DNA from: Anaerolineales bacterium
Lineage (GTDB): Bacteria > Chloroflexota > Anaerolineae > Anaerolineales > E44-bin32
Length of the DNA stretch: 64,000 nucleotides
Assembly (NCBI GenBank): GCA_036397095.1
Contig: DASWJQ010000108.1
Location: 5,385 to 69,384 of the forward strand
Direction: 5' to 3'
Part shown: positions 11,046 through 63,843 of the stretch, piece after piece
Position numbering within the stretch: the first letter of the stretch is position 1
Layout of the letters: every line of letters starts with the position of its first letter
Translations under genes and position numbers: made by a program
Notes under the pieces: generated by a model
The model's input: only the letters and a program-made list of their open reading frames with translations
What the model was told of the DNA's origin: nothing
The model's database searches: none

Positions 11046-11047
11046 GC

Positions 11048-14337: not shown

Positions 14338-14360
14338 CGGGAACCCCGACTGCGAAGTGG

Positions 14361-31140: not shown

Positions 31141-31284
31141 CGATGGATCATCGTGACGGTCGATATGGGCCGTGGACCGCGGACGATGGCCGCGGACGAA
31201 ATGGACCGCCGACGGCGGACCGCGCTCGATACGGTCGATCGTCCATGGTCCGTCCTTGCCGTCCGCGGTCAGCCGTCTGCGGTC
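31141..31284. repeat. second heptamer array, switching from GAC-type to its complement (GTC-type)
   Basis: ...GGACCGC GGACGAT GGCCGCG GACGAAA TGGACCG CCGACGG... is followed by CGTCCAT GGTCCGT CCTTGCC GTCCGCG GTCAGCC GTCTGCG GTC, ending at the kinase stop codon. GACCGCGGACG (31176) is complementary to CGTCCGCGGTC (31260). Confidence 0.5.
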
Positions 31285-32242
31285 ATGCTCCCCATTGCTC
31301 TCCCAACACCTCGCTTGCTTCCGGCTCGAACTGCGCCAGCATCGCCTGGATCTCCTGGCGCGTCGGCACATTGTGGCCCGTGCCCAGCTTGCGCACCTTG
31401 GCCGCCCCGGCGGCGTTGGCCAGGGCTCCCAAGGTGATCAGATCGAGGTTGCGCAGCCAGCCGAATACCACGGCCGCATCCAGGCTGTCGCCGGCGCCGG
31501 TGGCGTCGCGCACCTCGACCGGCAAGCCGGGGGCGATTTCGGTCGCCTCGTCGGTCAGCAGCAGGCAGCCGGCCACGCCGCGCTTCATCACAATCAGAGA
31601 TGGGCCGGCCTCGAGCAGCGCTTTGGCCGAGGCCAGCGGGTCGGGCAGCCCGGTCAGCCGGCTGGCCTCGCTCTCGGTGGCCAATACGACGGTCGCTAGC
31701 CTGGCAGCCTGTTCGTGCCAGGCAAGGCTCAGGTCGGGGTTGCCCGGCCCAGGGTCGAAAAACGATGGCACCTGGGCTTGCTTGGCCGCTTCGAGCCCGG
31801 CCAGGATTACCTGGTGCTCATGCGGCTGATCCTCCCATCCGTCGGCGAAAAGGGCTTCGGAGTTTGCGATCGCCTGACTCCACTCGGGAAGCAGTTCTTC
31901 GATCGTCAGATTGCCCCGGTACCCTAGGTAGGCGGGTTCACCCTGGCTGTCGACGATGACGGCGGCTACCGGCGTTTCGGATGCGTTGGTCCGCCGGATC
32001 AGATCGGTGTCGATCCCTTCGTGCGCCAGGCCGTCCACCACCAACTGCCCAAAGCGGTCTTCGCCGACTTCGCCCAGGCAAGCGACGGACAGCCCCAGCC
32101 GGGCGGCGACGATGGCGACGTTGGAGGCGCCGCCCGGCCCCAGACTCAAGTAGTCGGCACGTATTAGCGCACCGGCCTGGACGGGAAACGAAGCGATGCG
32201 CAGGTTGAAGTCGGCGATCAAATCGCCCAGGATGGTGATCAT
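31283..32242 (-). CDS. PfkB-family carbohydrate/nucleoside kinase (ribokinase-like)
   Basis: The N-terminus has GPGGASNVAIVAARLG and the C-terminus has DATGAGDSLDAAVVFG (PfkB signature 2). Confidence 0.85.
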   Translation of the reverse strand: MITILGDLIADFNLRIASFPVQAGALIRADYLSLGPGGASNVAIVAARLGLSVACLGEVGEDRFGQLVVDGLAHEGIDTDLIRRTNASETPVAAVIVDSQGEPAYLGYRGNLTIEELLPEWSQAIANSEALFADGWEDQPHEHQVILAGLEAAKQAQVPSFFDPGPGNPDLSLAWHEQAARLATVVLATESEASRLTGLPDPLASAKALLEAGPSLIVMKRGVAGCLLLTDEATEIAPGLPVEVRDATGAGDSLDAAVVFGWLRNLDLITLGALANAAGAAKVRKLGTGHNVPTRQEIQAMLAQFEPEASEVLGEQWGA

Positions 32243-33063
32243 GGACGCCCTCCTTGCGGGCGATGTTGTCGCTCATAGTCTGCTATGAAGTTTTCCACGG
32301 TCAGCGGCCACCCCTCAAGCCCCAGAGCCGCCGCCAGACGCATCATCTGCGGCTGCTCGACGGCGGCCCTGGCCAGTAGGTCCGTCTGGCTCAGGACTTG
32401 GGCCAGTGGGCCGTCGGCCAAAACCTGGCCATCGGCCATCAAGACCCCGCGTTCCAAGTGTTCGCTGCAGAAATCAATGTCATGCGAAATTACGATAATG
32501 GTCCGGCCGTCCGCTTCCAACCGATCGAGCACCGCCGCCAGGACGCGCAAGCCGGCCGCGTCCTGGCCGGTGGTCGGTTCGTCGATTACAACGATCGGTG
32601 TCTCCAGTGCCAGCGTGGCGGCCAATGCCACCAGCTTGCGGTCGGTCGGCTGGAGATCATAGGGGTGAGTGTCTGCCCGGGCCGCCAGGCCAACGAGACC
32701 CAGCACCGCCCTCACCCTGCGGTCGACTTCGCCGGCCGACAATCCCAGGTTCTTGGGCCCAAAGGCGACCTCCGCCCGCACGGTGCGTTCGAACAGTTGG
32801 TCGTCGGGGTTTTGAAAAGCATAGCCGACGCGGGCCGCCAGTTCGGCCGGGCTGTGCTCGAGCGTGGACCAGTCACCGATTTCGACCACGCCCGAGTCGG
32901 GCTTGAGCAAACCGTTCAGGTGTTTGGCCAGCGTGGTCTTGCCGGCGCCGTTTTCACCGAGGATGGCGATCCTTTCGCCCGGCTCGATGGTCAGATCGAC
33001 GCCGTCCAACGCCACCACATCGGGGGCATAGGCGAACCCGACCGATTCCAGGTGAATCCTCAT
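32239..33063 (-). CDS. ECF-transporter ATPase component (EcfA-like)
   Basis: Start moved to ATG 33063 (ATGA overlap with the upstream ATPase). Walker A GENGAGKTT, Walker B VIDEPTTGQD. Confidence 0.85.
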   Translation of the reverse strand: MRIHLESVGFAYAPDVVALDGVDLTIEPGERIAILGENGAGKTTLAKHLNGLLKPDSGVVEIGDWSTLEHSPAELAARVGYAFQNPDDQLFERTVRAEVAFGPKNLGLSAGEVDRRVRAVLGLVGLAARADTHPYDLQPTDRKLVALAATLALETPIVVIDEPTTGQDAAGLRVLAAVLDRLEADGRTIIVISHDIDFCSEHLERGVLMADGQVLADGPLAQVLSQTDLLARAAVEQPQMMRLAAALGLEGWPLTVENFIADYERQHRPQGGRP

Positions 33064-41025: not shown

Positions 41026-41511
41026 TTATCGGAAGGCCTCGCCGCGGGTTGGCTCGCCCTCAAACACCCGCACGGCAACGACGTCGGCTTCGGCGGTCTG
41101 GTTTCCGTCGACGAAGGTGCGGCAGGTCACACGCGTCTTGCGCCCGCTCATCGACTCGACGCGGGCCCGCAGCGTAACAGGCAGCTCATTCGACGTGGGC
41201 AGCAGATAGCGGATGGTGATCGTGCCGGTGGCATAGCGGTAGACCGGATCCGAGCCAACCGGCCGGCTCTCACTGGCGTAGGCTGCTTGCAGGGCGGTGG
41301 CCATCGAATGGCAATCAATCAACGTCGCCAGAATGCCTCCGTTCAGGACCGATTGCCAGCCGTGGTACTTCTCGGCCGATTGCCAGACGGCGACACACTC
41401 CTCGCCGTCCATGAAGCTCTTGATTTGCAGGCCGTCGGGGTTGAGCGATCCGCAACCGAAGCACACGTTGTCGGGCATGAAATCTTGAATGTAGACGCGG
41501 TCTTCGGACAT
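41026..41511 (-). CDS. PaaI/hotdog-fold thioesterase
   Basis: CFGCGSLNPDGLQI... and GGILATLIDCHS are typical of PaaI-type thioesterases. Confidence 0.75.
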   Translation of the reverse strand: MSEDRVYIQDFMPDNVCFGCGSLNPDGLQIKSFMDGEECVAVWQSAEKYHGWQSVLNGGILATLIDCHSMATALQAAYASESRPVGSDPVYRYATGTITIRYLLPTSNELPVTLRARVESMSGRKTRVTCRTFVDGNQTAEADVVAVRVFEGEPTRGEAFR

Positions 41512-41584: not shown

Positions 41585-42130
41585 TCAGCCGGAGTCGGCT
41601 TCGGAGCTGGCCTCGGGGATGTCTTCCCGCCGCAACGGGCAAATGGCGGTAATGCCGCCGGCGTTAAACAGGATCGCCGGGCTGGAGGCCTCGATATTCG
41701 GGTACAGAATGGACTGGAGTTCGGCGTTGTACAGCGGCGAAAAGACGGCTTCGCCCTCGACGAAGATCGTGCTCAGGTCAATCCGGCCGGAAGCCTCCAA
41801 CATACCGCGAACTTCATAGCCCTCCAGCATCATGTGGACCCAGTGCTGGGCCACCGTCGAGTAACCGTGCCTGGTCAGCGACACCGGCCCGAGCTCGCCC
41901 CGGTTGCTGAGCAAGACGGCCGCCAGGCTGCGTTTGTTGAGCCACAGGCGCGGATAACGGGCGACCAAGCGCGCCGGTTGGTGCAGCCGGGTCAAATGGG
42001 CGCCCTCGATTTCGAGCGATGACCGCGTGCGGTCATTCATGAATCCATACAATCCGGCGCTGCCCGGGGTGACCCGGCCCAGCACACGGTGGCTCGAGGT
42101 GTAAATCTCAACGGAGACGGGATTGCTCAT
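41585..42130 (-). CDS. hypothetical protein (181 aa), possible internal duplication
   Basis: Codon usage looks coding and the gene lies 13 nt after the upstream gene. Two halves share a V-x-I/M-x-T/L...V-x-G-x-V/L pattern by eye. No family was recognised. Confidence 0.5.
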   Translation of the reverse strand: MSNPVSVEIYTSSHRVLGRVTPGSAGLYGFMNDRTRSSLEIEGAHLTRLHQPARLVARYPRLWLNKRSLAAVLLSNRGELGPVSLTRHGYSTVAQHWVHMMLEGYEVRGMLEASGRIDLSTIFVEGEAVFSPLYNAELQSILYPNIEASSPAILFNAGGITAICPLRREDIPEASSEADSG

Positions 42131-42143: not shown

Positions 42144-43787
42144 CTAACCCGCCGGCAGGGCGAAGGTGATCGAAGTGCTGACCGCTGTATGGTTGTGCCA
42201 CAAGTAGCCGCCCATCGACTCAGCGATCAATCTGACCTCGCCCATCGAGAGCCCCGGGCCCAGACTGCCAACCGTAGGATCGGCCTCGGGCAGCGACAGT
42301 GCGCGAACGGTATCCGGGGACAGACCACCGCTTGAATCTGAAACCTCCACCGCCACCCAACGGCCGTCCGGCAGCGACTGTTCCTGGGGCAAGGGGAAAC
42401 CGCTGCTGTAGCCAGCGGTCACATCGAACTGGCGCAGGGTGAGCGCTATTCGTCCCCGCTGGGTACGGCGAATGGCCGCCGCCGTGAGCGCCTCGATCAC
42501 CCGATGGATCCTTCCCTGATGCCCGCGCAGCCGCGGCAAGCGGCCGTTTGATTCGAGCACCAGTTCAAGACTGCGCTGGCGGGCAGCCATCCTCAGCTCA
42601 TCAACTACCCGGGCCGCCACCTGCTCGAGGTCGATGTAAGAACCCTCGGTGCCGGACTCCAGCAGGGCCATCGGCAGTTGGCGCAGGGAAATGACTCGGT
42701 CGAGCATATCCGCCCAGCGCTGGTGGGAGGCGGGATCGGTCTGATCCTTGAGACCGGCCCGCAGTTCGTTTTCCAGCTGCTCCAACCCATGAATTAGATC
42801 CAACGGTATCTGGGCCGTCGCTGGTGTGGGCGGGGGAGCCGACGGCGGCTCGGCGGGCGCAGCGGGTGGCTCGCCGGCCGATTGTTCGAGCGCGACGCCG
42901 GCCCAATCGGCCAGCGCCCCGAGCAAGGTGACATGGTGCTCACTGAATGGACGTGGCGCCAGCCGGTTGTAGACCCCCAGCACGCCAACCGGCCGCTGGC
43001 CGATCCGGACCGGCACCTTGATCAGGGACTGGACCAGAAAACCGGTCTGCACCTTGACCGGTTTTGCTCCTTCTTCGGGCTGGCGGACGATCGGCTGCCC
43101 CGAGCGGAACACGTGACCGGCCAGGGTATCGGTAATGCGCAATCGCTTGAGCGTGCCGCGCGTCTCGCCGGCCGATTTGCTGGCACGCAGCACCACTTCG
43201 CGCGAGCCTTGCTCGGCCAGGTAGATATTGGCTTCTTCGGCGTCGGTCAAGAAGGCGGCCGCCTCGACTACCCGCGTCAGGATGGACTCGAGGTTGCGCA
43301 ATCCAACCACCGTCCGGCCGATCTCACTTAGCCAGCGGATCTCTTCGGAGCGGCGCCTGGCCTGCTCCCGGGTTGACTGCAACCGGCGCGCCAGCAGTTG
43401 GGTCGTGACCTCGGTCGACCGGGCCTCACTCAATGCATAAATCGACTTGCACAGCTCAACGCCTTTGTAGGGCTTGAGCATGACATCGGCCACGCCCAGG
43501 CGGAATAGGTCCCGCAGCCGCGCCGTCGGGAAATGGGCCGCCAGTACGATCGCCGGCGCTTCGTCGCCTTTGGCACGCAGCGTGCGCAAGCCTCCGAGAG
43601 GGTCGCCTAGCTGCTGGGTGATGTCGACCAGCAAGACGTCGGGGGTCGGGGCCTGTGGGTCTTCGGCGGGCCAAGCGCGGATGCCGGCCGGTTTGAGGAT
43701 TTTGTCAATAATCCCCTGGGCGTTGCTGGCTACATCGGCCAGCACCAGAACGACGGGATTGCGGCCGCGGTGATCAAGTTCACTCAT
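42144..43787 (-). CDS. REC - GAF - histidine-kinase-like (HATPase) signalling protein
   Basis: Start at ATG 43787, overlapping the BMC-P stop by 8 nt. It has a REC-like N-terminus (VVLVLAD...DVLLVDI...MLKPY) and a GAF-like middle (ILTRVVEAAAFLTDAEEANIYL...VGVLGVYN). A possible degenerate H-box (ASHQRWADML) precedes the HATPase boxes (DSSGGL, GPGLSMGEVRLIAESMGG). Confidence 0.7.
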   Translation of the reverse strand: MSELDHRGRNPVVLVLADVASNAQGIIDKILKPAGIRAWPAEDPQAPTPDVLLVDITQQLGDPLGGLRTLRAKGDEAPAIVLAAHFPTARLRDLFRLGVADVMLKPYKGVELCKSIYALSEARSTEVTTQLLARRLQSTREQARRRSEEIRWLSEIGRTVVGLRNLESILTRVVEAAAFLTDAEEANIYLAEQGSREVVLRASKSAGETRGTLKRLRITDTLAGHVFRSGQPIVRQPEEGAKPVKVQTGFLVQSLIKVPVRIGQRPVGVLGVYNRLAPRPFSEHHVTLLGALADWAGVALEQSAGEPPAAPAEPPSAPPPTPATAQIPLDLIHGLEQLENELRAGLKDQTDPASHQRWADMLDRVISLRQLPMALLESGTEGSYIDLEQVAARVVDELRMAARQRSLELVLESNGRLPRLRGHQGRIHRVIEALTAAAIRRTQRGRIALTLRQFDVTAGYSSGFPLPQEQSLPDGRWVAVEVSDSSGGLSPDTVRALSLPEADPTVGSLGPGLSMGEVRLIAESMGGYLWHNHTAVSTSITFALPAG

Positions 43788-44049
43788 ACATTTGTATCGA
43801 GTCGACGATGCCCACGACAACGGAGCGGACACAGCCCTCAGGCTGATCCAGAACCTGGCGGGCGCCGTTACCCTCGTCGTTGATCAGGACCGTGTCGCCG
43901 ACGCCGGCATGGGTGATGTCGAGCGCCACCAGATCCTCTTGCTCCTCATTGTCGGGATCGAGTGGCTGCACAACCAGCAGCCGACGCTGCTTGAAGTCAG
44001 GGTGGCTTATTGTGGTGACTACGGTGCCGACGACTTTCCCTAGAATCAT
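43780..44049 (-). CDS. BMC-P (EutN/CcmL-family) vertex protein
   Basis: MILGKVVGTVVTTISHPDFKQRRLLVVQPLD...GVGDTVLI is the EutN/CcmL pattern. Confidence 0.85.
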   Translation of the reverse strand: MILGKVVGTVVTTISHPDFKQRRLLVVQPLDPDNEEQEDLVALDITHAGVGDTVLINDEGNGARQVLDQPEGCVRSVVVGIVDSIQMYE

Positions 44050-44058
44050 GACATGGTC

Positions 44059-44373
44059 TCAACTGTAGAGGTTGAGCCCCTTCTTGAGTTGGAAGTCAAT
44101 GCCTTCTTGGATGTTCAGTTCGTCGACAATGCCGATGATGGCCAGATCGATCGGGACGAACGTCTCATTGCGCATGGCCAAGGCCGCCTCGCGTGAGGCC
44201 ACCGTCAGGCACAAGTCGCCCGGCCCGGCTTCGACCACGTCCGCCGCCACCTGCAGGCTGTCGACCGGTTCCAGGCGTTTGTTCACCGGCTGCACCACCA
44301 GCAAGCTGACGCCTTTGATCCCGTCGACCTTCAGGGTGCAAACGGCGCGGCCATGCACCCTGGCCAAGTTCAC
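44059..44373 (-). CDS. BMC-P (EutN/CcmL-family) vertex protein
   Basis: GTG start. LARVHGRAVCTLKVDGIKGVSLLVVQP...GPGDLCL... It carries a C-terminal extension. Confidence 0.85.
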   Translation of the reverse strand: MNLARVHGRAVCTLKVDGIKGVSLLVVQPVNKRLEPVDSLQVAADVVEAGPGDLCLTVASREAALAMRNETFVPIDLAIIGIVDELNIQEGIDFQLKKGLNLYS

Positions 44374-44374
44374 C

Positions 44375-44734
44375 TTAACTCACTCCCAACTGGTCGAGTA
44401 CGCGATCGAGGATGCGGTCGAGCAGTTCCTGGTCGACCTGGTCGCCGAGCTTGTGGCCAACCGCTTGCCGGACGCGCTGGCGAATGTCGCTGGCTGCTGG
44501 CAGGCTGCCACCATCATCCGACTTGGTCTCGAGTGGCGGCGCATAGCGCATGGAGGCCGCTTGACGTGCGGCCTGCTCGGGGATCTGGTAGGCGCCGACG
44601 ATGATGATGCCTTCTTTGGCGGCTCGCTCGCGAGCCAGGTCGGTCATCCGATCCTCGGGCCCAAGGTGCAGCTGGCGCCCTCCCGCCTGGGCAAGGTCGA
44701 CGATGTCAACTTCGGTGTAAAACTCGGCAGCCAT
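44375..44734 (-). CDS. BMC-associated hypothetical protein with C-terminal amphipathic helix
   Basis: Start moved to ATG 44734 (MAAEFYTEVDIVDLA...). The C-terminal DQELLDRILDRVLDQLG resembles an encapsulation peptide. Confidence 0.55.
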   Translation of the reverse strand: MAAEFYTEVDIVDLAQAGGRQLHLGPEDRMTDLARERAAKEGIIIVGAYQIPEQAARQAASMRYAPPLETKSDDGGSLPAASDIRQRVRQAVGHKLGDQVDQELLDRILDRVLDQLGVS

Positions 44735-44751
44735 CGCTACACCGCCTCGTG

Positions 44752-45381
44752 CTACTCGGCGCGGCCTTCGAGGGCGCCCAGCGCAGTATCGACCGCTTCG
44801 CGCGCCGTGCTGATTTCGGACTCGGATCCGGACAACCACATTCGGCCAAAACGACCGATCCCCGAGAAGTGAAGCAGGTTAATACTGGCCGACTTCTCGG
44901 CTTCGTTGCAGGCGTAAGTGATGTAGGCGGCCGGTGCAACTTCCATCACCAGCATGGTCTGGCCTGGAATCAACATCGTGCCGCGCCTGAAACGATTGAT
45001 CAGCTGCGCCTGGTAAGGCTCGACATTGGTGATGATCTGGTTGGAAATCACCTGCGGTTTGACCCGGTCTTCTCGTTTCAATCCCAGCCGATCCAGCACG
45101 ATGCGGCCCGCTTCAAGCACCTCGGCCTGCTCGGGGTGATGGACTTCGAAGGTGCCGAATTCGCGTTCGACAATCTGCACGCCCGGCCGGGCCCGCGTCG
45201 CTTTGACGGCGATGTCGACGACGCGGAACACTTCATTACCTGGCGCCATCTCGATGTAGAGCGAAGCCATGCCCTCGGTCGACAGGTCGCCCTGGGTAAT
45301 CGTACCGATGAATGCGGCGAACTGGGCCTGCATGCGATCGAGGTACACGTAGCAGCGAAGTGAGAAATCAGTGCTCATCAA
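44752..45381 (-). CDS. BMC-T (tandem BMC-domain) shell protein
   Basis: Two BMC-like halves are each marked by the shell-domain helix (FRVVDIAVKATRARPGVQIV and AYITYACNEAEKSASINLL). 209 aa. Confidence 0.7.
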   Translation of the reverse strand: MMSTDFSLRCYVYLDRMQAQFAAFIGTITQGDLSTEGMASLYIEMAPGNEVFRVVDIAVKATRARPGVQIVEREFGTFEVHHPEQAEVLEAGRIVLDRLGLKREDRVKPQVISNQIITNVEPYQAQLINRFRRGTMLIPGQTMLVMEVAPAAYITYACNEAEKSASINLLHFSGIGRFGRMWLSGSESEISTAREAVDTALGALEGRAE

Positions 45382-46247
45382 CGGCTCCAGTTCGAAACGG
45401 CTTCTAACAAGCTGGGATTGGCAGCCAATGGGCGGCCCAGCGCCAGCCCCAGCGGCGTGACCAGTTGGGTGTGCGGTGCCACCGTCGCCGGCAAGCCGGT
45501 CACCTCGGCCACGACCTCGTCGATGCCGGGGAAGGCGCAGGCGCCACCCACCAGGTGGATCTGATCGACGGACCGGCCAGCCAGGTGGCGGGCTATGATC
45601 GTGCCAATCTTCTCCATGACCGGCCGGACCATCCCCAGGAGTCGACTTTGTTCGCCCGGTGTTTCTTTCAGGCGTTCGGCGTCTTCATACGAAATGTCGA
45701 GCGCCCCGGCGATCACAAGGTTGAAATGGGTGCCGCCGGTGGCTTCATCGGCGGTGTACACAATCTCGCCTCGCTCAACGACGGCGATCCCGGTTGTACC
45801 CCCACCGACATCAACAATTGCACCCTGGCGAATTCCCAGGACGTTGTTGGCCGCCGACGGTTCGTCGATCAGCTCGAGGCAGTCCATGCCGGCGCTTTGC
45901 ACGACATGAGCGATGGCCTGACGCTCCGGCTCGGGCACCCCGGGGGGATAGCCGGAGACAGCCGCCGTCAGGGTTCGCTGTAGTTCGGCCTCGACTTCCG
46001 CCTTCATTTGGCGGAGCCGGTCGACGGCGCCGATGAAATCGACGACCAGGCCGTCGCGGACGACCTGTGCTGGCCACAGGCGACCGGCCAGCGGCTGCCC
46101 CTGGTCGTCCAGGGCCAGCAGCACCATCTTGGCCGTGCCCAAGTCGACACCGACGCGCACATCGCCCTGCACCGCCGGGCGGCCGGGCGTTGCGCCGGTG
46201 AGAACGGCCTGGGCCTCGGCGAGCAGAGCCTCGGCGGCCGTGTTCAC
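45378..46247 (-). CDS. eutJ: EutJ-like actin/Hsp70-fold putative chaperonin
   Basis: VGVDLGTAKMV...DVGGGTTGIAV...ATGGTHFN are ASKHA phosphate and adenosine motifs in the EutJ arrangement. Confidence 0.85.
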   Translation of the reverse strand: MNTAAEALLAEAQAVLTGATPGRPAVQGDVRVGVDLGTAKMVLLALDDQGQPLAGRLWPAQVVRDGLVVDFIGAVDRLRQMKAEVEAELQRTLTAAVSGYPPGVPEPERQAIAHVVQSAGMDCLELIDEPSAANNVLGIRQGAIVDVGGGTTGIAVVERGEIVYTADEATGGTHFNLVIAGALDISYEDAERLKETPGEQSRLLGMVRPVMEKIGTIIARHLAGRSVDQIHLVGGACAFPGIDEVVAEVTGLPATVAPHTQLVTPLGLALGRPLAANPSLLEAVSNWSR

Positions 46248-46257
46248 CTAGGGTCGG

Positions 46258-46593
46258 CTATGACTTCTTGCTGGATGATTCGGAGCGACCGCCGATCCCA
46301 CCCTTGGAGCGTTGCGGCAGAATCATCTCGACGTCCTCGTGGGGACGCGGGATAACGTGCGCCGACACCAGTTCGCCAACGCGCTTGGCCGCTGCTGCGC
46401 CGGCATCGGTGGCTGCCTTGACGGCGCCAACGTCGCCGCGCACCAGGACGGTCACGTAGCCGCCGCCGGTGTACTCGGAGCCAATCAGGGCGACATTGGC
46501 CGCCTTGACCATGGCATCGGCTGCTTCGATCGACCCGATCAAGCCGCGAGTCTCAACCATGCCGAGGGCGATCATCGAGATTTCTTGGGCCAT
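46258..46593 (-). CDS. BMC-H (PduA/EutM-type hexamer) shell protein
   Basis: [30 protein letters not shown]...[19 protein letters not shown] is the canonical Pfam00936 sequence. GGAGGAAG RBS. Confidence 0.9.
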
Positions 46594-46648
46594 GTTGCTT
46601 CCTCCATCAAGTAGTGGGCAGGCCGGATCCCGACCTGAGTCGGGTCAG

Positions 46649-48139
46649 CTAGCTCTCTCGCTCTGCTCGGATCTCGTCAAGGATGCGCACGACCATCGAC
46701 TCGATCCGCTGGATATCTACCTCGTTTGGCACCTGGGCGCCAGCCACCGCCGGCGCGGCCGCGCCAAAGATAGAATCGGGCGGCGGGTTGCGCTCAAAGG
46801 CCAACCGTTTGGTGTCATACAGGTGGTGCACCGTGATGTTGTCGCCGGTGATCGATCGACCCTCGCCGCCCGATCCCAAGGTCATCGACGGCATGACATT
46901 CGTGGTATAGCCGATGGCGCCCAGCGTGCCAGGCGTGTTGACCAGAATGCGGAAAACGGGCTTCTCCAGGCCAAAGGCCATGATCACGTCATCGTCCTCG
47001 GCGTGAATCACCAGGCTGTGGCCGCGCCCGCCAAAGTGAATCAATTCGATGCAGCGGTCGCAGCCAGCGCGCCAGCCGTCGGTCTCGTACCAGCCGAGCA
47101 CTGTCGTCAGCTTCTCGCGCGACAGCGGCTCCTCCGGTCCGACCTTGTCAACCGGTGTCACCAGGATGCGAGCCGAAGCTGGCACTTCGAAGCCGGCCAT
47201 CGCCGCCAGCGTTTGCGGGGATTGGCCGACCGTCTTGACGTTGATGCCGCCGTCAGCCTGGAACAATGTCCGGCGCAATGCCTCGGATTCATCGGGGGAG
47301 GTGAAGTAGGCGCCTTCGGCTTGCATCCGGCTGCGCAGCGCGTCGGCGATGGGCCGGTCGGCGATCACATCCTGCTCGGTCGAGCAAATAACCGAGTGAT
47401 CGAAAGCCTTGCTGGCAACGATATAGCGGGCCGCCCGGTCGATATCGGCGCTGCGGTCAACGTAGCAAGGCACATTGCCCGGGCCGACGCCATAGGCCGG
47501 CTTGCCGACCGAATGGGCCGCCCGCACCATTGGCGTACCGCCGGTGGCCAGGATCAGGCTGGTGCGCTTGTGGCGCATCAGCTCCTGCGTGCCCTCCAGG
47601 CTGATGGTTTCGAGGCATTGGACCAGATTGGCCGGTGCCCCGGCGGCGACGGCCGCCTCGGCCATGATCCGTGATGTCTCCCGGCAGGCGCCGACCGCCG
47701 TCGGATGGGGGGCATGCACAATGGCATTGCGCGCTTTGACTGCGATCAGGGTCTTGAAGATGACCGTCGAGGTCGGGTTGGTGCTGGGGCTGAGGGCAGC
47801 CACAACGCCCACCGGCCAGGCGATTTCGATGATGCCTTTGGCATCGTCACGCCTAATAACTCCGACGGTTGGGATGTCGCGGATCGACTCCCACACCCGG
47901 CGTGAGCTGAACTGGTTCTTGATCGTCTTGTGGGCCGGTACGCCATAGCCCGTCTCGTCATGAGCCATTTGGCCCAGCCGTTCGGCGGCCTGATAGGCGG
48001 CGTCGGCCATCGCCTGGCAAATCCGATCGACCAGGTCCTGGGGAGCATCGGCAAACTGCAGGAAGGCCTGGTAGGCCGTCTCGGCCGCCCGCCGAGCTTC
48101 CTGGATTGACCTCAGGTCTTTGTCAAATGTCTCGGCCAT
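46649..48139 (-). CDS. CoA-acylating aldehyde dehydrogenase (EutE/PduP-like) with C-terminal encapsulation-peptide-like helix
   Basis: The catalytic Cys context FDHSVICSTEQ is present. The C-terminal tail NEVDIQRIESMVVRILDEIRAE follows an Ala/Pro linker. Confidence 0.9.
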   Translation of the reverse strand: MAETFDKDLRSIQEARRAAETAYQAFLQFADAPQDLVDRICQAMADAAYQAAERLGQMAHDETGYGVPAHKTIKNQFSSRRVWESIRDIPTVGVIRRDDAKGIIEIAWPVGVVAALSPSTNPTSTVIFKTLIAVKARNAIVHAPHPTAVGACRETSRIMAEAAVAAGAPANLVQCLETISLEGTQELMRHKRTSLILATGGTPMVRAAHSVGKPAYGVGPGNVPCYVDRSADIDRAARYIVASKAFDHSVICSTEQDVIADRPIADALRSRMQAEGAYFTSPDESEALRRTLFQADGGINVKTVGQSPQTLAAMAGFEVPASARILVTPVDKVGPEEPLSREKLTTVLGWYETDGWRAGCDRCIELIHFGGRGHSLVIHAEDDDVIMAFGLEKPVFRILVNTPGTLGAIGYTTNVMPSMTLGSGGEGRSITGDNITVHHLYDTKRLAFERNPPPDSIFGAAAPAVAGAQVPNEVDIQRIESMVVRILDEIRAERES

Positions 48140-48152
48140 CGGTCCGGCTCCC

Positions 48153-48443
48153 TCAGGATTTGCGGAATGTTACCTTGCCGTCGACCTCGAGCGAGTCGAT
48201 CACCGCCATGATGACGGTGTCGACAGGCGATTTGTCTGTCATGTCGGTCTGGCGAGCGGCGCTGCCCTGGGCGATCAGGACCAGTTCGCCGACGCCTGCG
48301 TCAACCACATCCACGCCGACCAGGGGCTTGCCCGTCACCTGACCGGTCTCATCAGTCTCACGCAGCACCAACAGCTTTCGCCCGTGCAGCTTGTCCTGCT
48401 TGATGGTGGCGATCGTAACCCCGACGACTTTGGCGATGCGCAT
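48153..48443 (-). CDS. BMC-P (EutN/CcmL-family) vertex protein
   Basis: Start moved to ATG 48443. MRIAKVVGVTIATIKQDKLHGRKLLVL...GVGELVLI. Confidence 0.85.
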   Translation of the reverse strand: MRIAKVVGVTIATIKQDKLHGRKLLVLRETDETGQVTGKPLVGVDVVDAGVGELVLIAQGSAARQTDMTDKSPVDTVIMAVIDSLEVDGKVTFRKS

Positions 48444-48456
48444 GCGGTCTCCTGGG

Positions 48457-48762
48457 TCAGCCCCGGTTATCCGGGTTGTGCAGTCGATCCTGGCCGGTCG
48501 GATCCGGGCTGGTGCTGTCCGTGCGGCGCCGCCGGTCGCGCTCATCGCGCTCCAGGTGGAGCAAAGTCTGCAGCTCCTGGACCGATTCTTCATCATACTC
48601 ACGCCGGCCGCATACATCGCAAATCCAGGCCGGGAAATCGGGGGCAGAGATGAACTCTCCTTGAAGCCAGGAGCAGTAGAAGGCCGTCCCCGGCTGCAGC
48701 GTCCCCAAATGGCACTCCGGGCAGGCGTAAGCGGCGGCTTCGAAGTTCTCGTCAGTAGCCAC
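48457..48762 (-). CDS. zinc-ribbon (YgiT-type-like) small protein inside the BMC operon
   Basis: CPECHLG...CDVCG forms two CxxC pairs and the tail is Arg/Asp-rich. The likely start is GTG 48762, overlapping the deoC 3' end by 11 nt. Confidence 0.5.
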
Positions 48763-49681
48763 GGGCGGCCTCGGTCTCCGGCTGCAGTTCACCGCGCGCC
48801 TCGCCGACAATGCGCACGCCAGCGCTGGCGCCGATGCGGGTGGCGCCGGCCTTGACCATGCTTCGGGCGTCTTGCAGGCCGCGGATGCCGCCGGCCGCCT
48901 TGATCCCCATCTGCGGTCCGACCACCTTGCGCATCAGGGCCACATCCGCAACGGTAGCGCCGCCCGGACCAAAGCCGGTCGAGGTCTTAACGAAATCAGC
49001 GCCCGCCTCCTTGGCCAGCAAGCAGCCGGCCACTTTCTCCTCTTCGGTCAGCAAAGCCATCTCGAGGATGACCTTGACCAGCGCATGGCGGGCGTGGGCC
49101 ACCTGCACGACACCGCGGATATCTTGTGCAACCGTGGTGTAGTCACCGCCCTTGAGCGCACCAATGTTGATGACCATATCGATTTCGGTGGCGCCATTCT
49201 TGATGGCGTCGAGCGCCTCGAAGGCTTTGACCTCGGGCAGGGTGGCGCCGAGGGGGAAGCCAATGACGGTACATACCTTGACCGGCGAGCCATCCAGCAA
49301 GTCCGCCGCCAACTTGACATGGGTTGGGTTGACGCAGACCGAAGCGAAGCCGTACTTGCGGGCCTCGAAGCACAATTGGGCAATCTGGTCGGGGGTGGCG
49401 TCGGCCTTGAGCAGGGTGTGGTCAATGGCCCGGGCCAGGGCCTCGTCGGCAGGCACGGCGCCCAGCGCTGACGAAACGCGGCTGGCGCCCGCTTGCACCA
49501 CCTGGCCGACGTCGTCGATACACGTCTGCACGCACAGCCCTTCGTAGCATTCTTGCTGGCAGACTACGCCCGACTGCTTCTCGCGCTCGGCGTCGGCCAG
49601 CGCCAGCAGCACTTCGCGGGTGACTGTCTCCACGATGGTTTGAACGAGCTGGCGATCGATGTCAGAGGGGGTCATAGGCAC
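48752..49681 (-). CDS. deoC: deoxyribose-phosphate aldolase (DERA) with ~85-aa N-terminal extension
   Basis: The core runs from [12 protein letters not shown] with Schiff-base Lys context FVKTSTGF and IKAAGGIR. The N-terminal extra region has an amphipathic helix and four Cys residues. Confidence 0.85.
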
Positions 49682-49684
49682 TGG

Positions 49685-50230
49685 TCAGCGGCGGCTGAAA
49701 CGGCGTTCGATGTCACCGATTTTGTCCACTCGCCGGGCATGGCGGCCGCCGGCGAAAGCCGTTTCCAGCCAGACGGCCGTAATCTGGCGCGCCAGTTCCC
49801 TGTCAAGCAAACCCGAACCCAGGCAAAGGACGTTGGCGTCGTTGTGTTGGCGGGCATTGTTGGCGGTCGCCTGATTGTAGCATAGGGCCGCCCGCACGCC
49901 CGGCACCTTGTTGGCGGCCATGCAGCTGCCGATGCCGGCGCCATCGATCACAATGCCGCGCCAGGCGGCGCCAACCGCCACCTGGCGAGCGACGGCCTCA
50001 GCGATATCCGGGTAGTCCGTCGAGCCGTCCGGCCGCTGGCTGTGATCCTGGATCTGGTAGCCCAGGTCCGCCAGCCAGTCGAGCAAATCGACTTTCAGTT
50101 CCTGGCCCCGATGGTCGGCGCCGATGGCAATCGTCCGCAACCGGTCGGCCTGCCAGCTGCCGCCGGTGGTTTCGGCAACCACGCGGGCAATCAGGGCCTC
50201 CAACTCGGCTTCGGAAATCGGCTGGGTCAT
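49685..50230 (-). CDS. rpiB: ribose-5-phosphate isomerase B (RpiB/LacAB family) with N-terminal extension
   Basis: The core is IAIGADHRG...GIGSCMAANKVPGVRAAL...HNDANVLCLG. The N-terminal AELEALIARVVAETT helix precedes it. Confidence 0.85.
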   Translation of the reverse strand: MTQPISEAELEALIARVVAETTGGSWQADRLRTIAIGADHRGQELKVDLLDWLADLGYQIQDHSQRPDGSTDYPDIAEAVARQVAVGAAWRGIVIDGAGIGSCMAANKVPGVRAALCYNQATANNARQHNDANVLCLGSGLLDRELARQITAVWLETAFAGGRHARRVDKIGDIERRFSRR

Positions 50231-50293
50231 CGGTTTTTCCGCCTTGGACCGGCCCCTGCGAGCGGTCGTTTGCCTGGGGCTAGGCTCATCGCA

Positions 50294-50302
50294 AAGCGGC
50301 GC
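50294..50302 (-). promoter_or_regulatory. extended -10 promoter (TGCTACAAT) for the BMC operon
   Basis: On the minus strand TGCTACAAT lies about 64 nt upstream of the rpiB ATG. The -35 is weak. Confidence 0.45.
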
Positions 50303-59871: not shown

Positions 59872-61938
59872 TCAGCCGTCCAGGCCCTGGGCCAGCCGGG
59901 TGCGTTCGACAAAGCGATCGATGTCGTCCGGCCCTGGCTCTTCCCCGGCAATCAACAGATAAGCGCGGGCCCAGAACCGGCCCGAGGGCAGGTCCGTATG
60001 GAAGTTGGGATAGCGTTCAAGCACGCGGCGCGATAGGTCGTCGCGCAGCTGCTCGATGGCGTGGGCCGGGGCGCTTTCGGGGATCAGGCTGACGCGGATG
60101 GCCAGGTAGCCGGACGTGACCGAAATCCTGTCGGCGCGCCAGTCCCAGGCCAGGCAAAAACGCTGCGCCCACTCGCGCAGCTGGCGCGCCAACTCACCAC
60201 TGAGATAGTGTTCGGGAAAGCGAGGGACTAGCACCGCCGTGAACGGAAGGTGGTAGGTCGCTTCCTGGACCGGGGAGTCAAAGATGGTACCGTCGGTCAT
60301 GGCTGGCCCGGCGGTCTCTTCAAGGATGGCGAAGTAGGCCTCGGGCGGTTGGGCGCGTGGGATCCAATCGCGCGGCAGTGGCTGGGTGGTCGGTTTGGCT
60401 GGTGCGGGCCGGCGCGGCGCGGCCGGCTGCGGGTCCGGTGGCGGCAGGTCGACTTGTGTCAACTCCTCCAGCAAGGCTTGATGGGCCGGGCTCAACGAAG
60501 GGGCCGGCCGCCAGTCATCGGGCAGCTTGAGCGCCGGCTCCGGTTCGGGGAGAGCTTCCAGTTCGGTTGGTGAAGCTGGCACCGGCTCCGGTTCGGGCGG
60601 TCCAGGCGGGGGAACCGGTTCGGCTGGCGCGGGCGCCGGCTCCGGTGGGGGCGGTGCAGGCGGGGGAACCGGTTCGGTTGGCGCGGGCACCGGCTCCGGC
60701 GGGGGCGGTGCAGCCGGAGGTTCCTGTTTGGCTGTCGCGGGCGCCGGCTCAGGTAGTGGCGGTGCAGGTGGGGTTTCCGGTTCGGCTGGCGGTGTGGGTG
60801 CCGGCTCCGGTGGGGGCGGTGCGGGGGGGGGTGCCGGTTCGGCCGGCAGCCTGGGCGCCGGCTCCGGTGGGGGCGGTGTAAGTGGGGTTTCCGGTTCGGC
60901 CGGCGGCTTGGGCGCCGGCTCCGGTGGGGGCGGTGCGGGGGGCGGTTGTGGGCCGGCCGGTGGCGTTGGCCCCCGACTGGGGGAGGGCGAGATCGATCTC
61001 GGCATCAGATCGGGAAAGCTCGGGGAAGGGCGGGTCGGTCCGGTTGTCCCTGGACGCCCCAGTGCCTTCGACGGGGGTGGCCAGACCGTACGTGGGGCAG
61101 GTGCAGGCTGCTTGACAGGCATTTCGCCGCCAAGCAACCGGTCGGCGATCTGGCGCGTGGTTTCCCGGACGTCTGAGAATGGATGGTCGGCCGGGAATAC
61201 GACCCCCAGGCGAACGCCGCCGGGAAGTGGTGCGGTGTACAGCAGTTGGTCGCGGTAGGCGCCGCTGACGCGCACATATTGGGCCGTGGCGCCGGAGGTG
61301 CCGCGACGGCGATCGGTCAGGGGCAGGCCTTCGGCCAACTGCTGGGCATCGCGCCGGGATAGACCGGCGAAGGCAAGCGCCTGGCCGTCCTTGGCCAGCA
61401 GGCAGCCCGGCAGTCCCAGTTGGTCGCACAAAGCATGCAAGGTCGAGCCGGCGGCTTCGTAACGCCGGCGCAACGATCGGGTCGGAGTAGGCGTTGGTCC
61501 AGGTTTAGCCTGCGGCGTCCGTCGCGGTTTGGGCAAGGGCCCGGTGCCTGGCAGCGGCCCGGTGCCGCCGAAAGTTTTGGGCGCCTCAAGGGCGCGGGTC
61601 AGCACCGCCGGCAGTTCCGGCAAGTAGAACGGCTTGGTCAGGACGCCTTGGACCTGTACGTCCTTAAGTTCATCTTCGCCGGAGCCAACCATGGGAATGG
61701 CGACGATCTTCAAGTCGGCCGAGCGGCGGCGCAGCAGGCGGACCAGGTCGGCGCCGGACATGTCCGGTAGGCCAAAGTCGATGATCGCCAAATCAAACGC
61801 ATGATGGGAGACAAGATCTTCGGCCTGGCTGCCGCTCGTGGCCAGGGCGACTGCGTACTCACCGGTATCTTCCAGCGACTGCCGAATCAGCATGCCGAAT
61901 TCGCGGTTGGCGTCGACGATGAGTACCGGCGTGGTCAT
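59872..61938 (-). CDS. response-regulator receiver - Roadblock/LC7-like? - proline-rich repeats - degenerate IS200/Y1-transposase-like domain
   Basis: Start moved to ATG 61938 (MTTPVLIVDAN). REC motifs are DLAIIDFGLPDMSG and LTKPF. The C-terminal block YHLPF..VPRFPE...SGYLAIRVSLIPESAPAHAIEQLRDDLSRRVLERYPNF...RFWARAYLLIAGE...IDRFVERT is collinear with IS200 TnpA, but it lacks the HUH motif and the catalytic Tyr. Confidence 0.7.
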   Translation of the reverse strand: MTTPVLIVDANREFGMLIRQSLEDTGEYAVALATSGSQAEDLVSHHAFDLAIIDFGLPDMSGADLVRLLRRRSADLKIVAIPMVGSGEDELKDVQVQGVLTKPFYLPELPAVLTRALEAPKTFGGTGPLPGTGPLPKPRRTPQAKPGPTPTPTRSLRRRYEAAGSTLHALCDQLGLPGCLLAKDGQALAFAGLSRRDAQQLAEGLPLTDRRRGTSGATAQYVRVSGAYRDQLLYTAPLPGGVRLGVVFPADHPFSDVRETTRQIADRLLGGEMPVKQPAPAPRTVWPPPSKALGRPGTTGPTRPSPSFPDLMPRSISPSPSRGPTPPAGPQPPPAPPPPEPAPKPPAEPETPLTPPPPEPAPRLPAEPAPPPAPPPPEPAPTPPAEPETPPAPPLPEPAPATAKQEPPAAPPPPEPVPAPTEPVPPPAPPPPEPAPAPAEPVPPPGPPEPEPVPASPTELEALPEPEPALKLPDDWRPAPSLSPAHQALLEELTQVDLPPPDPQPAAPRRPAPAKPTTQPLPRDWIPRAQPPEAYFAILEETAGPAMTDGTIFDSPVQEATYHLPFTAVLVPRFPEHYLSGELARQLREWAQRFCLAWDWRADRISVTSGYLAIRVSLIPESAPAHAIEQLRDDLSRRVLERYPNFHTDLPSGRFWARAYLLIAGEEPGPDDIDRFVERTRLAQGLDG
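60581..60965. repeat. seven tandem 54-57-bp repeats (encode the 18-19-aa Pro-rich PPPEPAPxPPAEPxxPPA units)
   Basis: The core GCCGGCTCCGGTGGGGGCGGTGC recurs at 60581, 60635, 60689, 60743, 60800, 60857 and 60914, giving spacings of 54,54,54,57,57,57. Confidence 0.85.
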
Positions 61939-61989
61939 GTCATCAATGTAGCACGCCCGCCGGGCGCTTGCCAATGTCCCGGGGCGCGC

Positions 61990-62727
61990 TCAGTTGTCGG
62001 GGGTCTGGCTGGGCGTGGCGGTGGAGCTTGCCGTCGGAGTGGATGTTGGCGTGCTCGTCGATCCGGCCTCCGTGGCCGTCGGGCTGCTGGTTGCTGTTGC
62101 CGTGCTCGGGGAGGTCGGCGGCGCCGGCACCACGATCTTGACCCAGAAGGATTGGTCCCCCTGGGGACCAATGCCGAAGAACTCGCCATCGGGTGTGCGC
62201 AGCTTCCAATACCCCTGGTAGGTGCCCGGTTCGGCAGGGGCCTTCATATCGACCGCCAGGTCGACGATTCCGTCGGGCGCCACCTCGCTGGAGAGGGAGA
62301 CCGTGTCCGGTGCGTTCAGGCGGTTGCCGCCGAAGAACGATAGCAGGTAGGCGGGTGTCCAAGTGCAGGAGCCGGTGTTGCGCAAGCGCCAGATTTTGAC
62401 AAAGGTCTCCCCTGGGTCCAGTTGGCTGTTGTCACGCACGGTGACATCATCGATGAAGGCCGCCCGGTTGTCGCAGGGCTCGTCGTCGGTCGGGGCTGGG
62501 GTTGGCGATGGCTGCGGGCTGGCAAGCACAGGCTGGGTTTGCCGGGCGACGCCGGTGGCTGCGATGCCTGGGCCGGTCCGCGTCAGCACTGCCTCGACCG
62601 TCAAAGCGGCCGCGGCCACGCTGGGCGTAGCGCTGGCCGGGGGCGCCTGGCCGAGCAAGTTGCAGCCCGCCAAGAGCGCACCCACCAGCAGCAGAAGGGG
62701 AAGTTGACGCAGTTTGTCCATGACCAT
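61990..62727 (-). CDS. lipoprotein with NBR1-type Ig-like domain and Thr/Ser/Pro-rich tail
   Basis: Start moved to ATG 62727. The lipobox is LLAGC. FVKIWRLRNTGSCTW...GTYQGYWKLRTPDGEFFG is the N_BRCA1_IG-like pattern. Confidence 0.7.
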   Translation of the reverse strand: MVMDKLRQLPLLLLVGALLAGCNLLGQAPPASATPSVAAAALTVEAVLTRTGPGIAATGVARQTQPVLASPQPSPTPAPTDDEPCDNRAAFIDDVTVRDNSQLDPGETFVKIWRLRNTGSCTWTPAYLLSFFGGNRLNAPDTVSLSSEVAPDGIVDLAVDMKAPAEPGTYQGYWKLRTPDGEFFGIGPQGDQSFWVKIVVPAPPTSPSTATATSSPTATEAGSTSTPTSTPTASSTATPSQTPDN

Positions 62728-62838
62728 TTGCTCGTGTGTGAGCTGGGCGATTCTACCGCGCCACGGCCGGCGGCGGTTAGCGACAAAGCAAAGCGCCCGG
62801 GATAGGCCCGGGCGCTGTGGTTGCACGGAGATTGGGCG

Positions 62839-63843
62839 TTACTTCCAGGTGCGGATGTCGATCGTCAGCACCGGGGGGTTGGCACCCGAGATCTTTTCGA
62901 TCTCAAAGCGGCCGATGCGGCCTTCGCTGGTCTGGAAACAGAGCCAGTCGCCGACCTCGAAGTCGTCAAAATCGATGCGGTCATCAGATAATTCGCCGTC
63001 GTCGTCGCAGTCCTCGAAGTCGGGCACACCATCGGTCCATAGGAAGGCCTCGGCGTCGTTGACGGGGGTCAGGTAGCGCTCGACGGCGCTGATCGACTCG
63101 TACCATAGGTCGCGATCGGCATTGCTGTCTGCCGGGCTCTCCCCCTCGTCCAGATCCACATGGAACGAAGGCTTGAGCTCAATCTTGGCGGTCTTATACA
63201 CGCTGGGTGCCGGCGTCGGCGTCGGGCCAACGACGATCTGGACCCAGAAGGCGACGTTGGCATTGGCGCCGATGCCGAAGTTCACCCCGGTGGCGTTCTG
63301 CAACAACCAGTTGCCGCGGTAGGTGCCGTTGCTGGCAGGTGCCTCGAGGTCGACCGAAAGGTCGACCGTGCTGTTGGGGGGGACATTGCCGGACAGCGGC
63401 TGGCTGGCAGGTCCATCCATCGAGCGGCCACTGTCGAAAACCAGCTTGTATTGGGTCGTCCAGGTGCAGGTGCCGGTGTTACGCAAGCGCCAGGTCTTGG
63501 TGAAATCCTCACCCGGTTCGAAGTACGTGTCATCCGGGACGGTCACATCCGAGAGGAAGGAAGCACGATCGGTGCATCCGGTTGGGACCGGTGTGGCCGT
63601 GGGACCGGCTGGTGTGGCCGAGGCTGGCGGTGTGTTCGTGGCGGCCGCTGTCGGCGAGTCGGTCGGCAGTTGGCCGGCCGACCGGGTCAGCTCGGCGGCG
63701 ACGGTTTCGGCGGCGGCCGTGGCGTTGGCATCCTCGGTCGCCTGCTGGCCGGCGCTGGTTCCCAAACCTGGCATGTTACAGGCCGCCAGAATCAGGGACA
63801 GCAGAACCGGGACGGCAAAGACAATGAACGGGCGGCGTGGCAT
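62839..63843 (-). CDS. lipoprotein with NBR1-type Ig-like domain plus extra acidic C-terminal domain
   Basis: Start moved to ATG 63843 (AGGAGG RBS). The lipobox is ILAAC. FTKTWRLRNTGTCTW...GTYRGNWLLQNATGVNFG. It is a paralogue of the neighbouring gene. Confidence 0.7.
   Translation of the reverse strand: MPRRPFIVFAVPVLLSLILAACNMPGLGTSAGQQATEDANATAAAETVAAELTRSAGQLPTDSPTAAATNTPPASATPAGPTATPVPTGCTDRASFLSDVTVPDDTYFEPGEDFTKTWRLRNTGTCTWTTQYKLVFDSGRSMDGPASQPLSGNVPPNSTVDLSVDLEAPASNGTYRGNWLLQNATGVNFGIGANANVAFWVQIVVGPTPTPAPSVYKTAKIELKPSFHVDLDEGESPADSNADRDLWYESISAVERYLTPVNDAEAFLWTDGVPDFEDCDDDGELSDDRIDFDDFEVGDWLCFQTSEGRIGRFEIEKISGANPPVLTIDIRTWK

Follow-up and report, generated by a model that had tools for sequence, protein, structure and literature searches.

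We describe a gene cluster on the minus strand of a 64,000-nucleotide stretch of an uncultured Anaerolineae genome (Anaerolineales bacterium, assembly GCA_036397095.1, contig DASWJQ010000108.1, positions 5,385 to 69,384; hereafter, the window, to which all coordinates refer). We conclude that the cluster is very probably a complete operon for a sugar-phosphate-utilizing (SPU) bacterial microcompartment (BMC) of the SPU6 subtype, which works by the mechanism proposed for it. SPU is one of the commonest types of microcompartment. In the operon, eleven genes follow each other in the interval 43780-50230 with gaps of 1-55 nt or overlaps, as seen with Pfam, NCBIfam and the separate gene calls on the source contig, which concur with this layout. 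The window belongs to a metagenomic contig of 160 kb (ENA ERZ27256807, k141_3506764). From 5' to 3' along the operon, the genes are:

49685-50230, minus strand: RpiB-type protein, 181 aa (PF02502, E 7.6e-50)
48752-49675, minus strand: deoxyribose-5-phosphate aldolase (DERA), 307 aa (TIGR00126, 282 bits versus a cutoff of 117)
48457-48762, minus strand: YgiT-type Zn-ribbon protein, 101 aa (TIGR03831, 27.2 bits versus a cutoff of 20.2)
48153-48443, minus strand: BMC-P 1, 96 aa (CcmL model, 87.5 bits; PF03319; 96 aa in the source-contig gene call)
46649-48139, minus strand: CoA-acylating acetaldehyde dehydrogenase (AldDH), 496 aa (TIGR02518, 544 bits; PDB 3K9D, E 4e-137; 5J78)
46258-46593, minus strand: BMC-H hexamer protein, 111 aa (PF00936, E 5.6e-29)
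45378-46247, minus strand: EutJ-family actin/Hsp70-fold ATPase, 289 aa (NF011660/PRK15080, 321 bits versus a cutoff of 182)
44752-45378, minus strand: BMC-T of the Tdp type, 208 aa (NF053796 (CcmP), 266 bits; PDB 4HT5, E 5.6e-64; PF27545)
44375-44734, minus strand: U119, 119 aa, a conserved protein of SPU6 and EUT3 loci without a Pfam or NCBIfam match
44059-44373, minus strand: BMC-P 2, 104 aa (PF03319, E 8.7e-22)
43780-44049, minus strand: BMC-P 3, 89 aa (PF03319, E 6.2e-21)

Assignment of the operon to SPU6

The original prediction, made from the nucleotide sequence, had listed these eleven genes on the minus strand in this order, and Pfam, NCBIfam and the contig gene calls confirm all of them. 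The region that it called, 43780-50302, holds for the gene block, but RpiB starts at 50230 and not at 50302, as there is no in-frame start codon farther upstream. The end of the operon at 43780 does not hold, because the start of the next gene (42144-43787), which encodes a REC-GAF-HATPase protein, overlaps the stop codon of the last BMC-P gene by 8 nt; the transcription unit, thus, most probably runs on past 43780 into this gene. A terminator scan found no terminator-like sites on the minus strand inside 43780-50230, and promoter and terminator scans of the locus gave background level only and did not yield the operon boundaries. The G+C content is ∼64% across the window, and the locus does not differ from its surroundings.

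The assignment to the SPU class in the original prediction is borne out, and the gene set together with the features of DERA, RpiB and AldDH points to the SPU6 subtype. Among the seven SPU subtypes distinguished by Sutter et al. (2021), SPU6 was assigned to Anaerolineae, with its AldDH and Tdp adjacent to those of EUT3 (PMC8217296). According to Dwyer, Sutter and Kerfeld (2024), SPU6 DERA has an N-terminal extension of ∼70 residues composed of a helix and two strands, the RPI protein has an N-terminal encapsulation peptide and a Cys66→Asp exchange, the shell consists of one BMC-H, one Tdp and three BMC-P, two hypothetical proteins are encoded, and phosphotransacylase (PTAC) and PduS are absent, while alcohol dehydrogenase (ADH) is present in some loci only (PMC11585597). 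The shell complement that we find, i.e., a single BMC-H, one BMC-Tdp, a BMC-P triplet and no BMC-Ts, matches this description.

Compared by published description, the operon shares with the SPU6 locus of Chloroflexi bacterium GWB2_54_36 (PMC11585597) the RpiB-DERA-AldDH set and an Anaerolineae host, a DERA extension of ∼70-80 aa with the residues D165/K229/K258 there and D166/K230/K259 here, the N-terminal encapsulation peptide (putative here) and the Cys→Asp exchange in RpiB, and the C-terminal encapsulation peptide (likewise putative) of AldDH. Both loci also have one BMC-H, one Tdp, three BMC-P and two small hypothetical proteins, and neither has PTAC or PduS. By contrast, GWB2_54_36 has a GntR/UTRA regulator, whereas the present locus has none and has a REC-GAF-HATPase gene, a gene for a 181-aa protein without matches and a thioesterase-like gene. 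The present locus additionally has EutJ, which is unmentioned in PMC11585597, and the YgiT Zn-ribbon gene.

To find relatives, we scanned one genome per GTDB species with AldDH, which gave 80 loci, and then searched these by tblastn with all window proteins. DERA and AldDH occur together in 56 of the 80 loci, and the order RpiB-DERA-(Zn-ribbon)-P-AldDH-H-(EutJ)-Tdp-U119-P-P recurs in 56 species genomes, nearly all of them Anaerolineae metagenome-assembled genomes (MAGs). The cultured Levilinea saccharolytica KIBI-1 (locus L063) carries the same operon. By AldDH, the closest loci (76-78% identity) are in Anaerolineaceae or Chloroflexia MAGs; Levilinea, Pelolinea and Bellilinea are among the additional relatives. 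SPU6-type loci were also present in MAGs labelled Syntrophobacterales, Sulfurifustaceae and Terriglobia (L016, L057 and L082), reflecting either horizontal transfer or mis-binned Anaerolineae contigs. Two loci (L004, 6608-15809, and L005) are variant SPU6 loci with a short U119 homologue of 94 aa and with extra genes among the shell genes, namely for a response regulator, an MFS transporter, a DUF5939–guanylate cyclase, a DAO-type FAD oxidoreductase and a class II aldolase.

The closest relatives include EUT3-type loci as well, with 63-68% identity for AldDH and 71-75% for Tdp. In these loci (L048, L050, L061, L064, L069-L072), related AldDH, BMC-H, EutJ, Tdp and U119 are encoded in the same order, likewise without PTAC and ADH nearby. 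The ∼11 EUT3-type loci differ in that they encode EutA/B/C, an EutL-type BMC-T, EutQ and EutT where the present operon has RpiB and DERA, and none of these Eut proteins is encoded in the window. The operon might encode an EUT3-like ethanolamine or otherwise mis-typed metabolosome with DERA and RpiB as passengers; AldDH, BMC-H, EutJ, Tdp and U119 are common to it and EUT3-type loci at 54-85% identity, and the best solved relative of AldDH is from the Listeria eut cluster. However, EutA, EutB, EutC, EutL and EutQ are absent from the window, while the same tools find them in EUT3-type loci (e.g., L048), and DERA and RpiB bear encapsulation-type extensions and stand first in the operon. We regard the chance that this explanation is correct as close to negligible. 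As for whether AldDH belongs to an already characterized type, its nearest relatives are indeed in EUT3-type loci and in the Listeria eut cluster (3K9D); however, it is DERA and not AldDH that sets the type.

Cargo enzymes

DERA is the signature enzyme of the locus. Its catalytic domain (residues 79-296) aligns to PDB 6D33 (E 1e-86), and the class I aldolase residues Asp166, Lys230 and Lys259 are all present in conserved motifs. The chemistry put forward in the original prediction, in which DERA cleaves deoxyribose-5-phosphate (dR5P) into glyceraldehyde-3-phosphate plus acetaldehyde and AldDH converts the latter to acetyl-CoA, is the accepted one. By contrast, its statement that the class is without an experimentally established substrate is out of date because the activity of purified SPU6 DERA on dR5P was measured in 2024 (PMC11585597).

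The N-terminal extension of DERA comprises ∼80 aa; as SPU6 is described, DERAs from outside BMCs lack such an extension. In an AlphaFold model made with 61 homologues (mean predicted local distance difference test score 82), it forms a helix at residues 8-35 followed by a β-hairpin with strands at residues 38-44 and 47-53; the terminal amphipathic helix has the top hydrophobic moment within the protein. Homologues of the extension were collected with full-length DERA, as a query with the 85-residue extension alone returned only 2 proteins due to the word-index limit, and the extension is kept in 54 related loci. Within it (49430-49675, minus strand, residues 1-80), Cys39, Cys43, Cys48 and Cys52 make up a C-x3-C-x4-C-x3-C motif. 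In the modelled hairpin, Cys39/Cys52 and Cys43/Cys48 are cross-strand neighbours, with one member of each pair per strand. Cys39 and Cys52 are invariant (54/54 genome loci), whereas Cys43 and Cys48 are both replaced in 6 of these loci and one of them is replaced in each of 2 others; all four are present in 119/119 long metagenomic homologues and in the 61-sequence alignment. The four-Cys hairpin is not mentioned in the SPU6 enzymology paper (PMC11585597). The Cys pairs may act as disulfide staples, as half-sites of an inter-subunit metal or iron-sulfur (Fe-S) centre, or as a redox switch.

At its N-terminus, RpiB is extended by 33 residues that include the helix SEAELEALIARVVAE, as read from the protein sequence, and this amphipathic helix (residues ∼6-20) is a putative encapsulation peptide. 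Asp96 aligns with the catalytic Cys (Cys66 of E. coli RpiB), while His129 is kept; in the alignment with Clostridium thermocellum RpiB (PDB 3PH3), ‘ividgagig’ is opposite ‘ivicgtglg’. The SPU6 orthologue is essentially inactive on ribose-5-phosphate and forms a complex with DERA (PMC11585597). RpiB of the present operon probably serves DERA as a packaging partner without catalytic activity. An active RpiB, in which Asp serves as the base in the way of Glu in Mycobacterium tuberculosis RpiB and the compartment processes a pentose or rare sugar phosphate besides or instead of dR5P, would account for the conservation of the remaining active site including His129, for the score of 146 bits versus the TIGR01120 equivalog cutoff of 139 bits, and for the presence of Asp at the position of the catalytic Cys in 52/52 related loci, which argues for selection at that position. 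Nevertheless, the negligible activity of the orthologue on ribose-5-phosphate (PMC11585597) and the lack of a transketolase or other enzyme in the locus that would join pentose phosphates to DERA and AldDH make this alternative quite improbable.

AldDH has the catalytic Cys252 in the motif ICSTEQ and is nearest to acetaldehyde-specific acylating enzymes, i.e., TIGR02518, 3K9D of the Listeria eut cluster, 5J78 and the AdhE N-domain. Its alignment to solved AldDHs stops at residue ∼447-461. Beyond this point, the tail at residues 476-492 (IQRIESMVVRILDEIRA) forms an amphipathic helix, and the hydrophobic moment of the whole protein peaks at residues 476-490. A C-terminal encapsulation peptide is stated for SPU6 AldDH (PMC11585597), and the helix at residues ∼476-492 is a putative one.

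Shell proteins

The three BMC-P proteins have a mutual identity of only 23-34% (pairwise tblastn), and this divergent set is the BMC-P triplet typical of SPU. For BMC-P 1, a 154-aa open reading frame (ORF) with a 58-residue N-terminal extension was dismissed as over-long, starting at an upstream ATG, because the PF03319 match starts at residue 59 (59-141) and the contig call is 96 aa. The BMC-T protein is of the double-stacking CcmP/CsoS1D-like Tdp type; HO-5816 and CsoS1D were also matched, and its Glu71-Arg72 aligns with the ‘ER’ of CcmP. Beyond these shell genes of the operon, the 64-kb window contains no second BMC-H, no BMC-Ts and no other shell paralogue. Tdp is the candidate for the sole large, gated pore of the predicted shell. 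The original prediction had also held that the class is without an established shell structure; a 2025 preprint reports shell self-assembly for archaeal SPU-type compartments (PMC12747264).

U119, a candidate shell–cargo adaptor

U119 is encoded between Tdp and BMC-P 2 in 43 of 45 loci, and its gene is also present in most of the ∼11 EUT3-type loci. A PDB sequence search and Foldseek against the PDB gave nothing significant. In an AlphaFold2 model, U119 has a confident α/β N-domain of ∼50 aa, a disordered linker (residues 54-79) and two C-terminal amphipathic helices. A whole-library profile search retrieved 527 clusters (50% identity) of this family at E ≤ 1e-3. According to Pfam, longer members have no fused domains, just tandem repeats of the N-domain, and some have two or three N-domains ahead of a single C-terminal helix pair, an arrangement that fits a scaffold role.

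U119 resembles EutQ's N-terminal region. First, hhalign aligned U119 with the EutQ N-termini of EUT3-type loci over the first ∼50 residues with a probability of 95% (E 2.4e-8). Second, when 4,824 ORFs were ranked with the profile, the U119 proteins were followed first by nine EutQs, all from EUT3-type loci, and next by E. coli EutQ; hmmsearch of the U119 profile against the EUT3-locus EutQs gave E-values of 5e-5 to 0.06. Third, the alignment of U119 with E. coli EutQ 1-100 runs collinearly through both modules and takes in the H3/H4 helices, but it is statistically weak (E 0.0026). Like the EutQ N-terminus, U119 has a small N-terminal module with the pattern xFTxxDIxxL…(I/L)T(P/D)xAR(D/E)xAxxxG(I/L), and a flexible linker then leads to two amphipathic helices, RVRQAVGHKLGDQVDQELLDRILDRVL in U119 and RIRETIIAQLPEGQFTESLVAQLMEKVM in EutQ. 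Unlike EutQ, U119 is without the cupin (acetate kinase) domain. In Salmonella, residues 1-99 of EutQ are a shell–cargo adaptor, which attaches to the shell through H1/H2 and to the encapsulation peptides of cargo through H3/H4 (PMC12487888). Because of its similarity to the EutQ N-terminus and the adaptor role of Salmonella EutQ 1-99, we propose U119 as a stand-alone homologue of this adaptor region, a proposal for which we judge the chances to be even.

Missing core enzymes and cofactor regeneration

The original prediction had noted that no phosphotransacylase, alcohol dehydrogenase or acetate kinase is encoded in the operon, and this holds for the operon and for the whole 64-kb window. Pfam identified no PTAC (PduL/Pta), Fe/Zn ADH or acetate kinase (AckA) in the operon or its flanks and none among all major ORFs of the window; a regex scan of the six-frame translation found none of their motifs, and tblastn found no homologues of E. 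coli EutD and EutG in the window. PTAC and ADH genes with encapsulation peptides just outside the called region were also looked for and not found. PduS/MNdh is likewise not encoded in the locus. Neither the window nor any of 87 fetched loci contains an EutD homologue or a PduL-like ORF with a double RHxH motif, and an Fe-ADH gene is present in only one of the loci (L036), where it directly follows the last BMC-P gene. An incomplete core is not a peculiarity of this locus but agrees with the published definition of SPU6, from which PTAC and PduS are absent and in which ADH occurs in some loci (PMC11585597).

SPU1-5, SPU7 and the Hodarchaeales SPU-type compartments (PMC12747264) share with the present locus DERA and an acylating AldDH, a BMC-P triplet and the predicted substrate dR5P. 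Unlike it, they carry PTAC, an iron-sulfur relay of PduS/MNdh and BMC-Ts that regenerates NAD+, or both; the present locus is without PduS and BMC-Ts. For SPU6, it has been proposed that acetyl-CoA exits via the large Tdp pore (PMC11585597). As SPU6 has no PTAC, no PduS/MNdh and usually no ADH, cofactor exchange through Tdp is most likely, and we infer that exchange of acetyl-CoA/CoA and NADH/NAD+ with the cytosol via Tdp is the best available explanation.

The core could instead be complete but split, with PTAC and/or ADH bearing encapsulation peptides encoded in a satellite locus and supporting canonical recycling inside the shell. Satellite loci are known for SPU6 (PMC8217296), the window is 64 kb of the genome, and some SPU6 loci carry an Fe-ADH (L036 here; ADH in some SPU6 loci in PMC11585597). 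Against this scenario, no such gene is present in the 64-kb window, there is no Pta/PduL signal within ±10 kb of the 80 related loci, and PTAC is reported absent from the SPU6 class (PMC11585597). On balance, a split core appears unlikely, and we favour exchange through Tdp.

Accessory and downstream genes

EutJ is encoded between BMC-H and Tdp in 36 of the 46 related loci that cover its position; the frequencies of EutJ and of the hypothetical genes were counted in the 56 loci of the present analysis. The Zn-ribbon gene starts with GTG and overlaps the DERA stop by 11 nt. Its product matches the YgiT finger model only, with no Pfam or PDB match, and the basic tail is probably disordered. It is an optional SPU6 accessory gene, which 18 of 56 related loci have, 11 of them at the identical position.

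Three genes follow BMC-P 3 on the same strand:

42144-43787, minus strand: REC-like, GAF and HATPase_c protein (REC-GAF-HATPase), 547 aa (GAF, E 2e-15; HATPase_c, E 4.5e-5; Response_reg, E 3e-3)
41585-42130, minus strand: U181, 181 aa, beginning 13 nt past the REC-GAF-HATPase gene
41026-41511, minus strand: U161, hotdog-fold thioesterase-superfamily protein, 161 aa (PDB 2PRX, E 1.6e-17, residues 7-151; PF03061, E 0.022)

The ATG of the REC-GAF-HATPase gene overlaps the stop codon of BMC-P 3 in the sequence ATGAGTGA (8 nt). Apart from the window, just 5 close relatives have the gene at the locus. GntR/UTRA regulators are encoded at 26 other related loci and are absent from the lineage of the window. 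REC-GAF-HATPase is probably a co-transcribed sensor/regulator of this lineage that replaces the GntR/UTRA regulator found in most SPU6 loci. U181 has no Pfam, NCBIfam or PDB match and is tied to the locus by synteny in the nearest relatives only. U161 starts 73 nt beyond U181, is present in 6 close relatives and has no recognizable encapsulation peptide; its membership in the microcompartment system is uncertain. Altogether, the three genes occur with the SPU6 operon solely in the 5-6 closest relatives, which are without the usual GntR/UTRA regulator.

U161 offers another conceivable answer to the lack of PTAC, i.e., it would hydrolyse acetyl-CoA to acetate and CoA in its stead. U161 belongs to the thioesterase superfamily based on the match to 2PRX, is encoded on the same strand three genes past the last shell gene, and is retained in the six closest relatives. 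However, it lacks a terminal extension or amphipathic helix, with the alignment to 2PRX beginning at residue 7; ∼50 other SPU6 loci are without it; the linkage may be mere synteny of close relatives; and hydrolysis wastes the thioester energy. With no extension and a lineage-restricted gene, U161 as an encapsulated CoA-recycling thioesterase was judged unlikely, and we hold a role of this kind to be very improbable.

Elsewhere in the window, a nucleobase-catabolism-like cluster at 1-16000 encodes a CoxE-like VWA protein, XdhC, CoxM/CoxS/CoxL-type molybdenum hydroxylase subunits, an amidase, AllG/AllH oxamate carbamoyltransferase subunits, a cyclase, a xanthine/uracil permease, a thiolase-like protein and a family III CoA-transferase. 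This cluster fits a nucleic-acid-scavenging lifestyle and is unlinked to the microcompartment operon. A PfkB-family sugar kinase (31283-32272, minus strand), encoded 11 kb from the operon and nearest to ribokinase (130 bits, far under the cutoff), could be a (deoxy)ribokinase supplying dR5P. A 705-aa protein (59872-61989, minus strand) has an odd domain combination: an N-terminal receiver, PAPPPPEP-type proline-rich repeats and a C-terminal IS200-like Y1 transposase domain (PF01797, E 3.7e-7). At 61990-63987 (minus strand), two adjoining secreted or lipoprotein-like proteins each have an NBR1-type Ig-like domain (PF16158).

Discussion

Our data support a model in which one BMC-H, one CcmP-like gated Tdp and three divergent BMC-P would form the shell. 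dR5P from the breakdown of DNA or deoxynucleosides would enter the shell, where DERA would split it into glyceraldehyde-3-phosphate, which leaves, and acetaldehyde, a reaction shown for the orthologous SPU6 enzyme. AldDH, which is predicted to be acetaldehyde specific and encapsulated, would then convert acetaldehyde to acetyl-CoA and NADH, while the degenerate RpiB would act as the packaging partner of DERA. Acetyl-CoA/CoA and NADH/NAD+ would be swapped with the cytosol via the ∼14 Å gated Tdp pore, and U119 would tie the encapsulation helices of the cargo to the shell.

Taken further, the compartment may be a minimal metabolosome that is open to cofactors, with no luminal recycling of NAD+ and CoA and with exchange via Tdp, and that combines U119 as adaptor with a redox- or metal-dependent switch, or an inter-subunit Fe-S or Zn site, formed by the two Cys pairs of the DERA hairpin. 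In this extended version, the Cys site of DERA would govern how cargo condenses or would pass electrons from the lumen to the outside. We consider it distinctly unlikely that all of these elements apply together.

Five points weigh against the interpretation of the operon that we favour or against parts of it. First, the formal criteria for SPU6 are shell-protein colour clades, with a fuchsia or pink BMC-H, a bright-blue Tdp and squash/bordeaux/silver BMC-P, and the position of AldDH in a tree, while the placement here is drawn from the gene set and protein features. Second, with 544 bits, AldDH is under the trusted cutoff of TIGR02518 (620). Third, PTAC or ADH may be encoded in trans elsewhere in the genome, the search having covered 64 kb of the 160-kb contig. 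Fourth, the formation of a shell and the passage of cofactors through Tdp are predicted from the genes alone. Fifth, U119 is only weakly similar to E. coli EutQ (hhalign probability 11%; hmmsearch E 0.21), and its C-terminal helices may be nothing more than an encapsulation peptide.

The locus is a typical copy of a catalogued and partly characterized type of microcompartment, and the puzzle of the missing core is already in the literature. How a shell can make NADH and acetyl-CoA without PTAC, ADH or a PduS–Ts electron relay is the open problem of SPU6, and the present locus is a compact example of it. New here are the identity of BMC-T as a CcmP-like Tdp, the continuation of the operon beyond the last shell gene, the likeness between U119 and EutQ, and the Cys pairs of DERA. 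The problem could become more tractable through U119, a candidate adaptor without a Pfam model that almost every SPU6 locus and most EUT3 loci encode, through the strongly conserved four-Cys hairpin of DERA, and through the cultured L. saccharolytica KIBI-1, which has the same operon and is usable for experiments.

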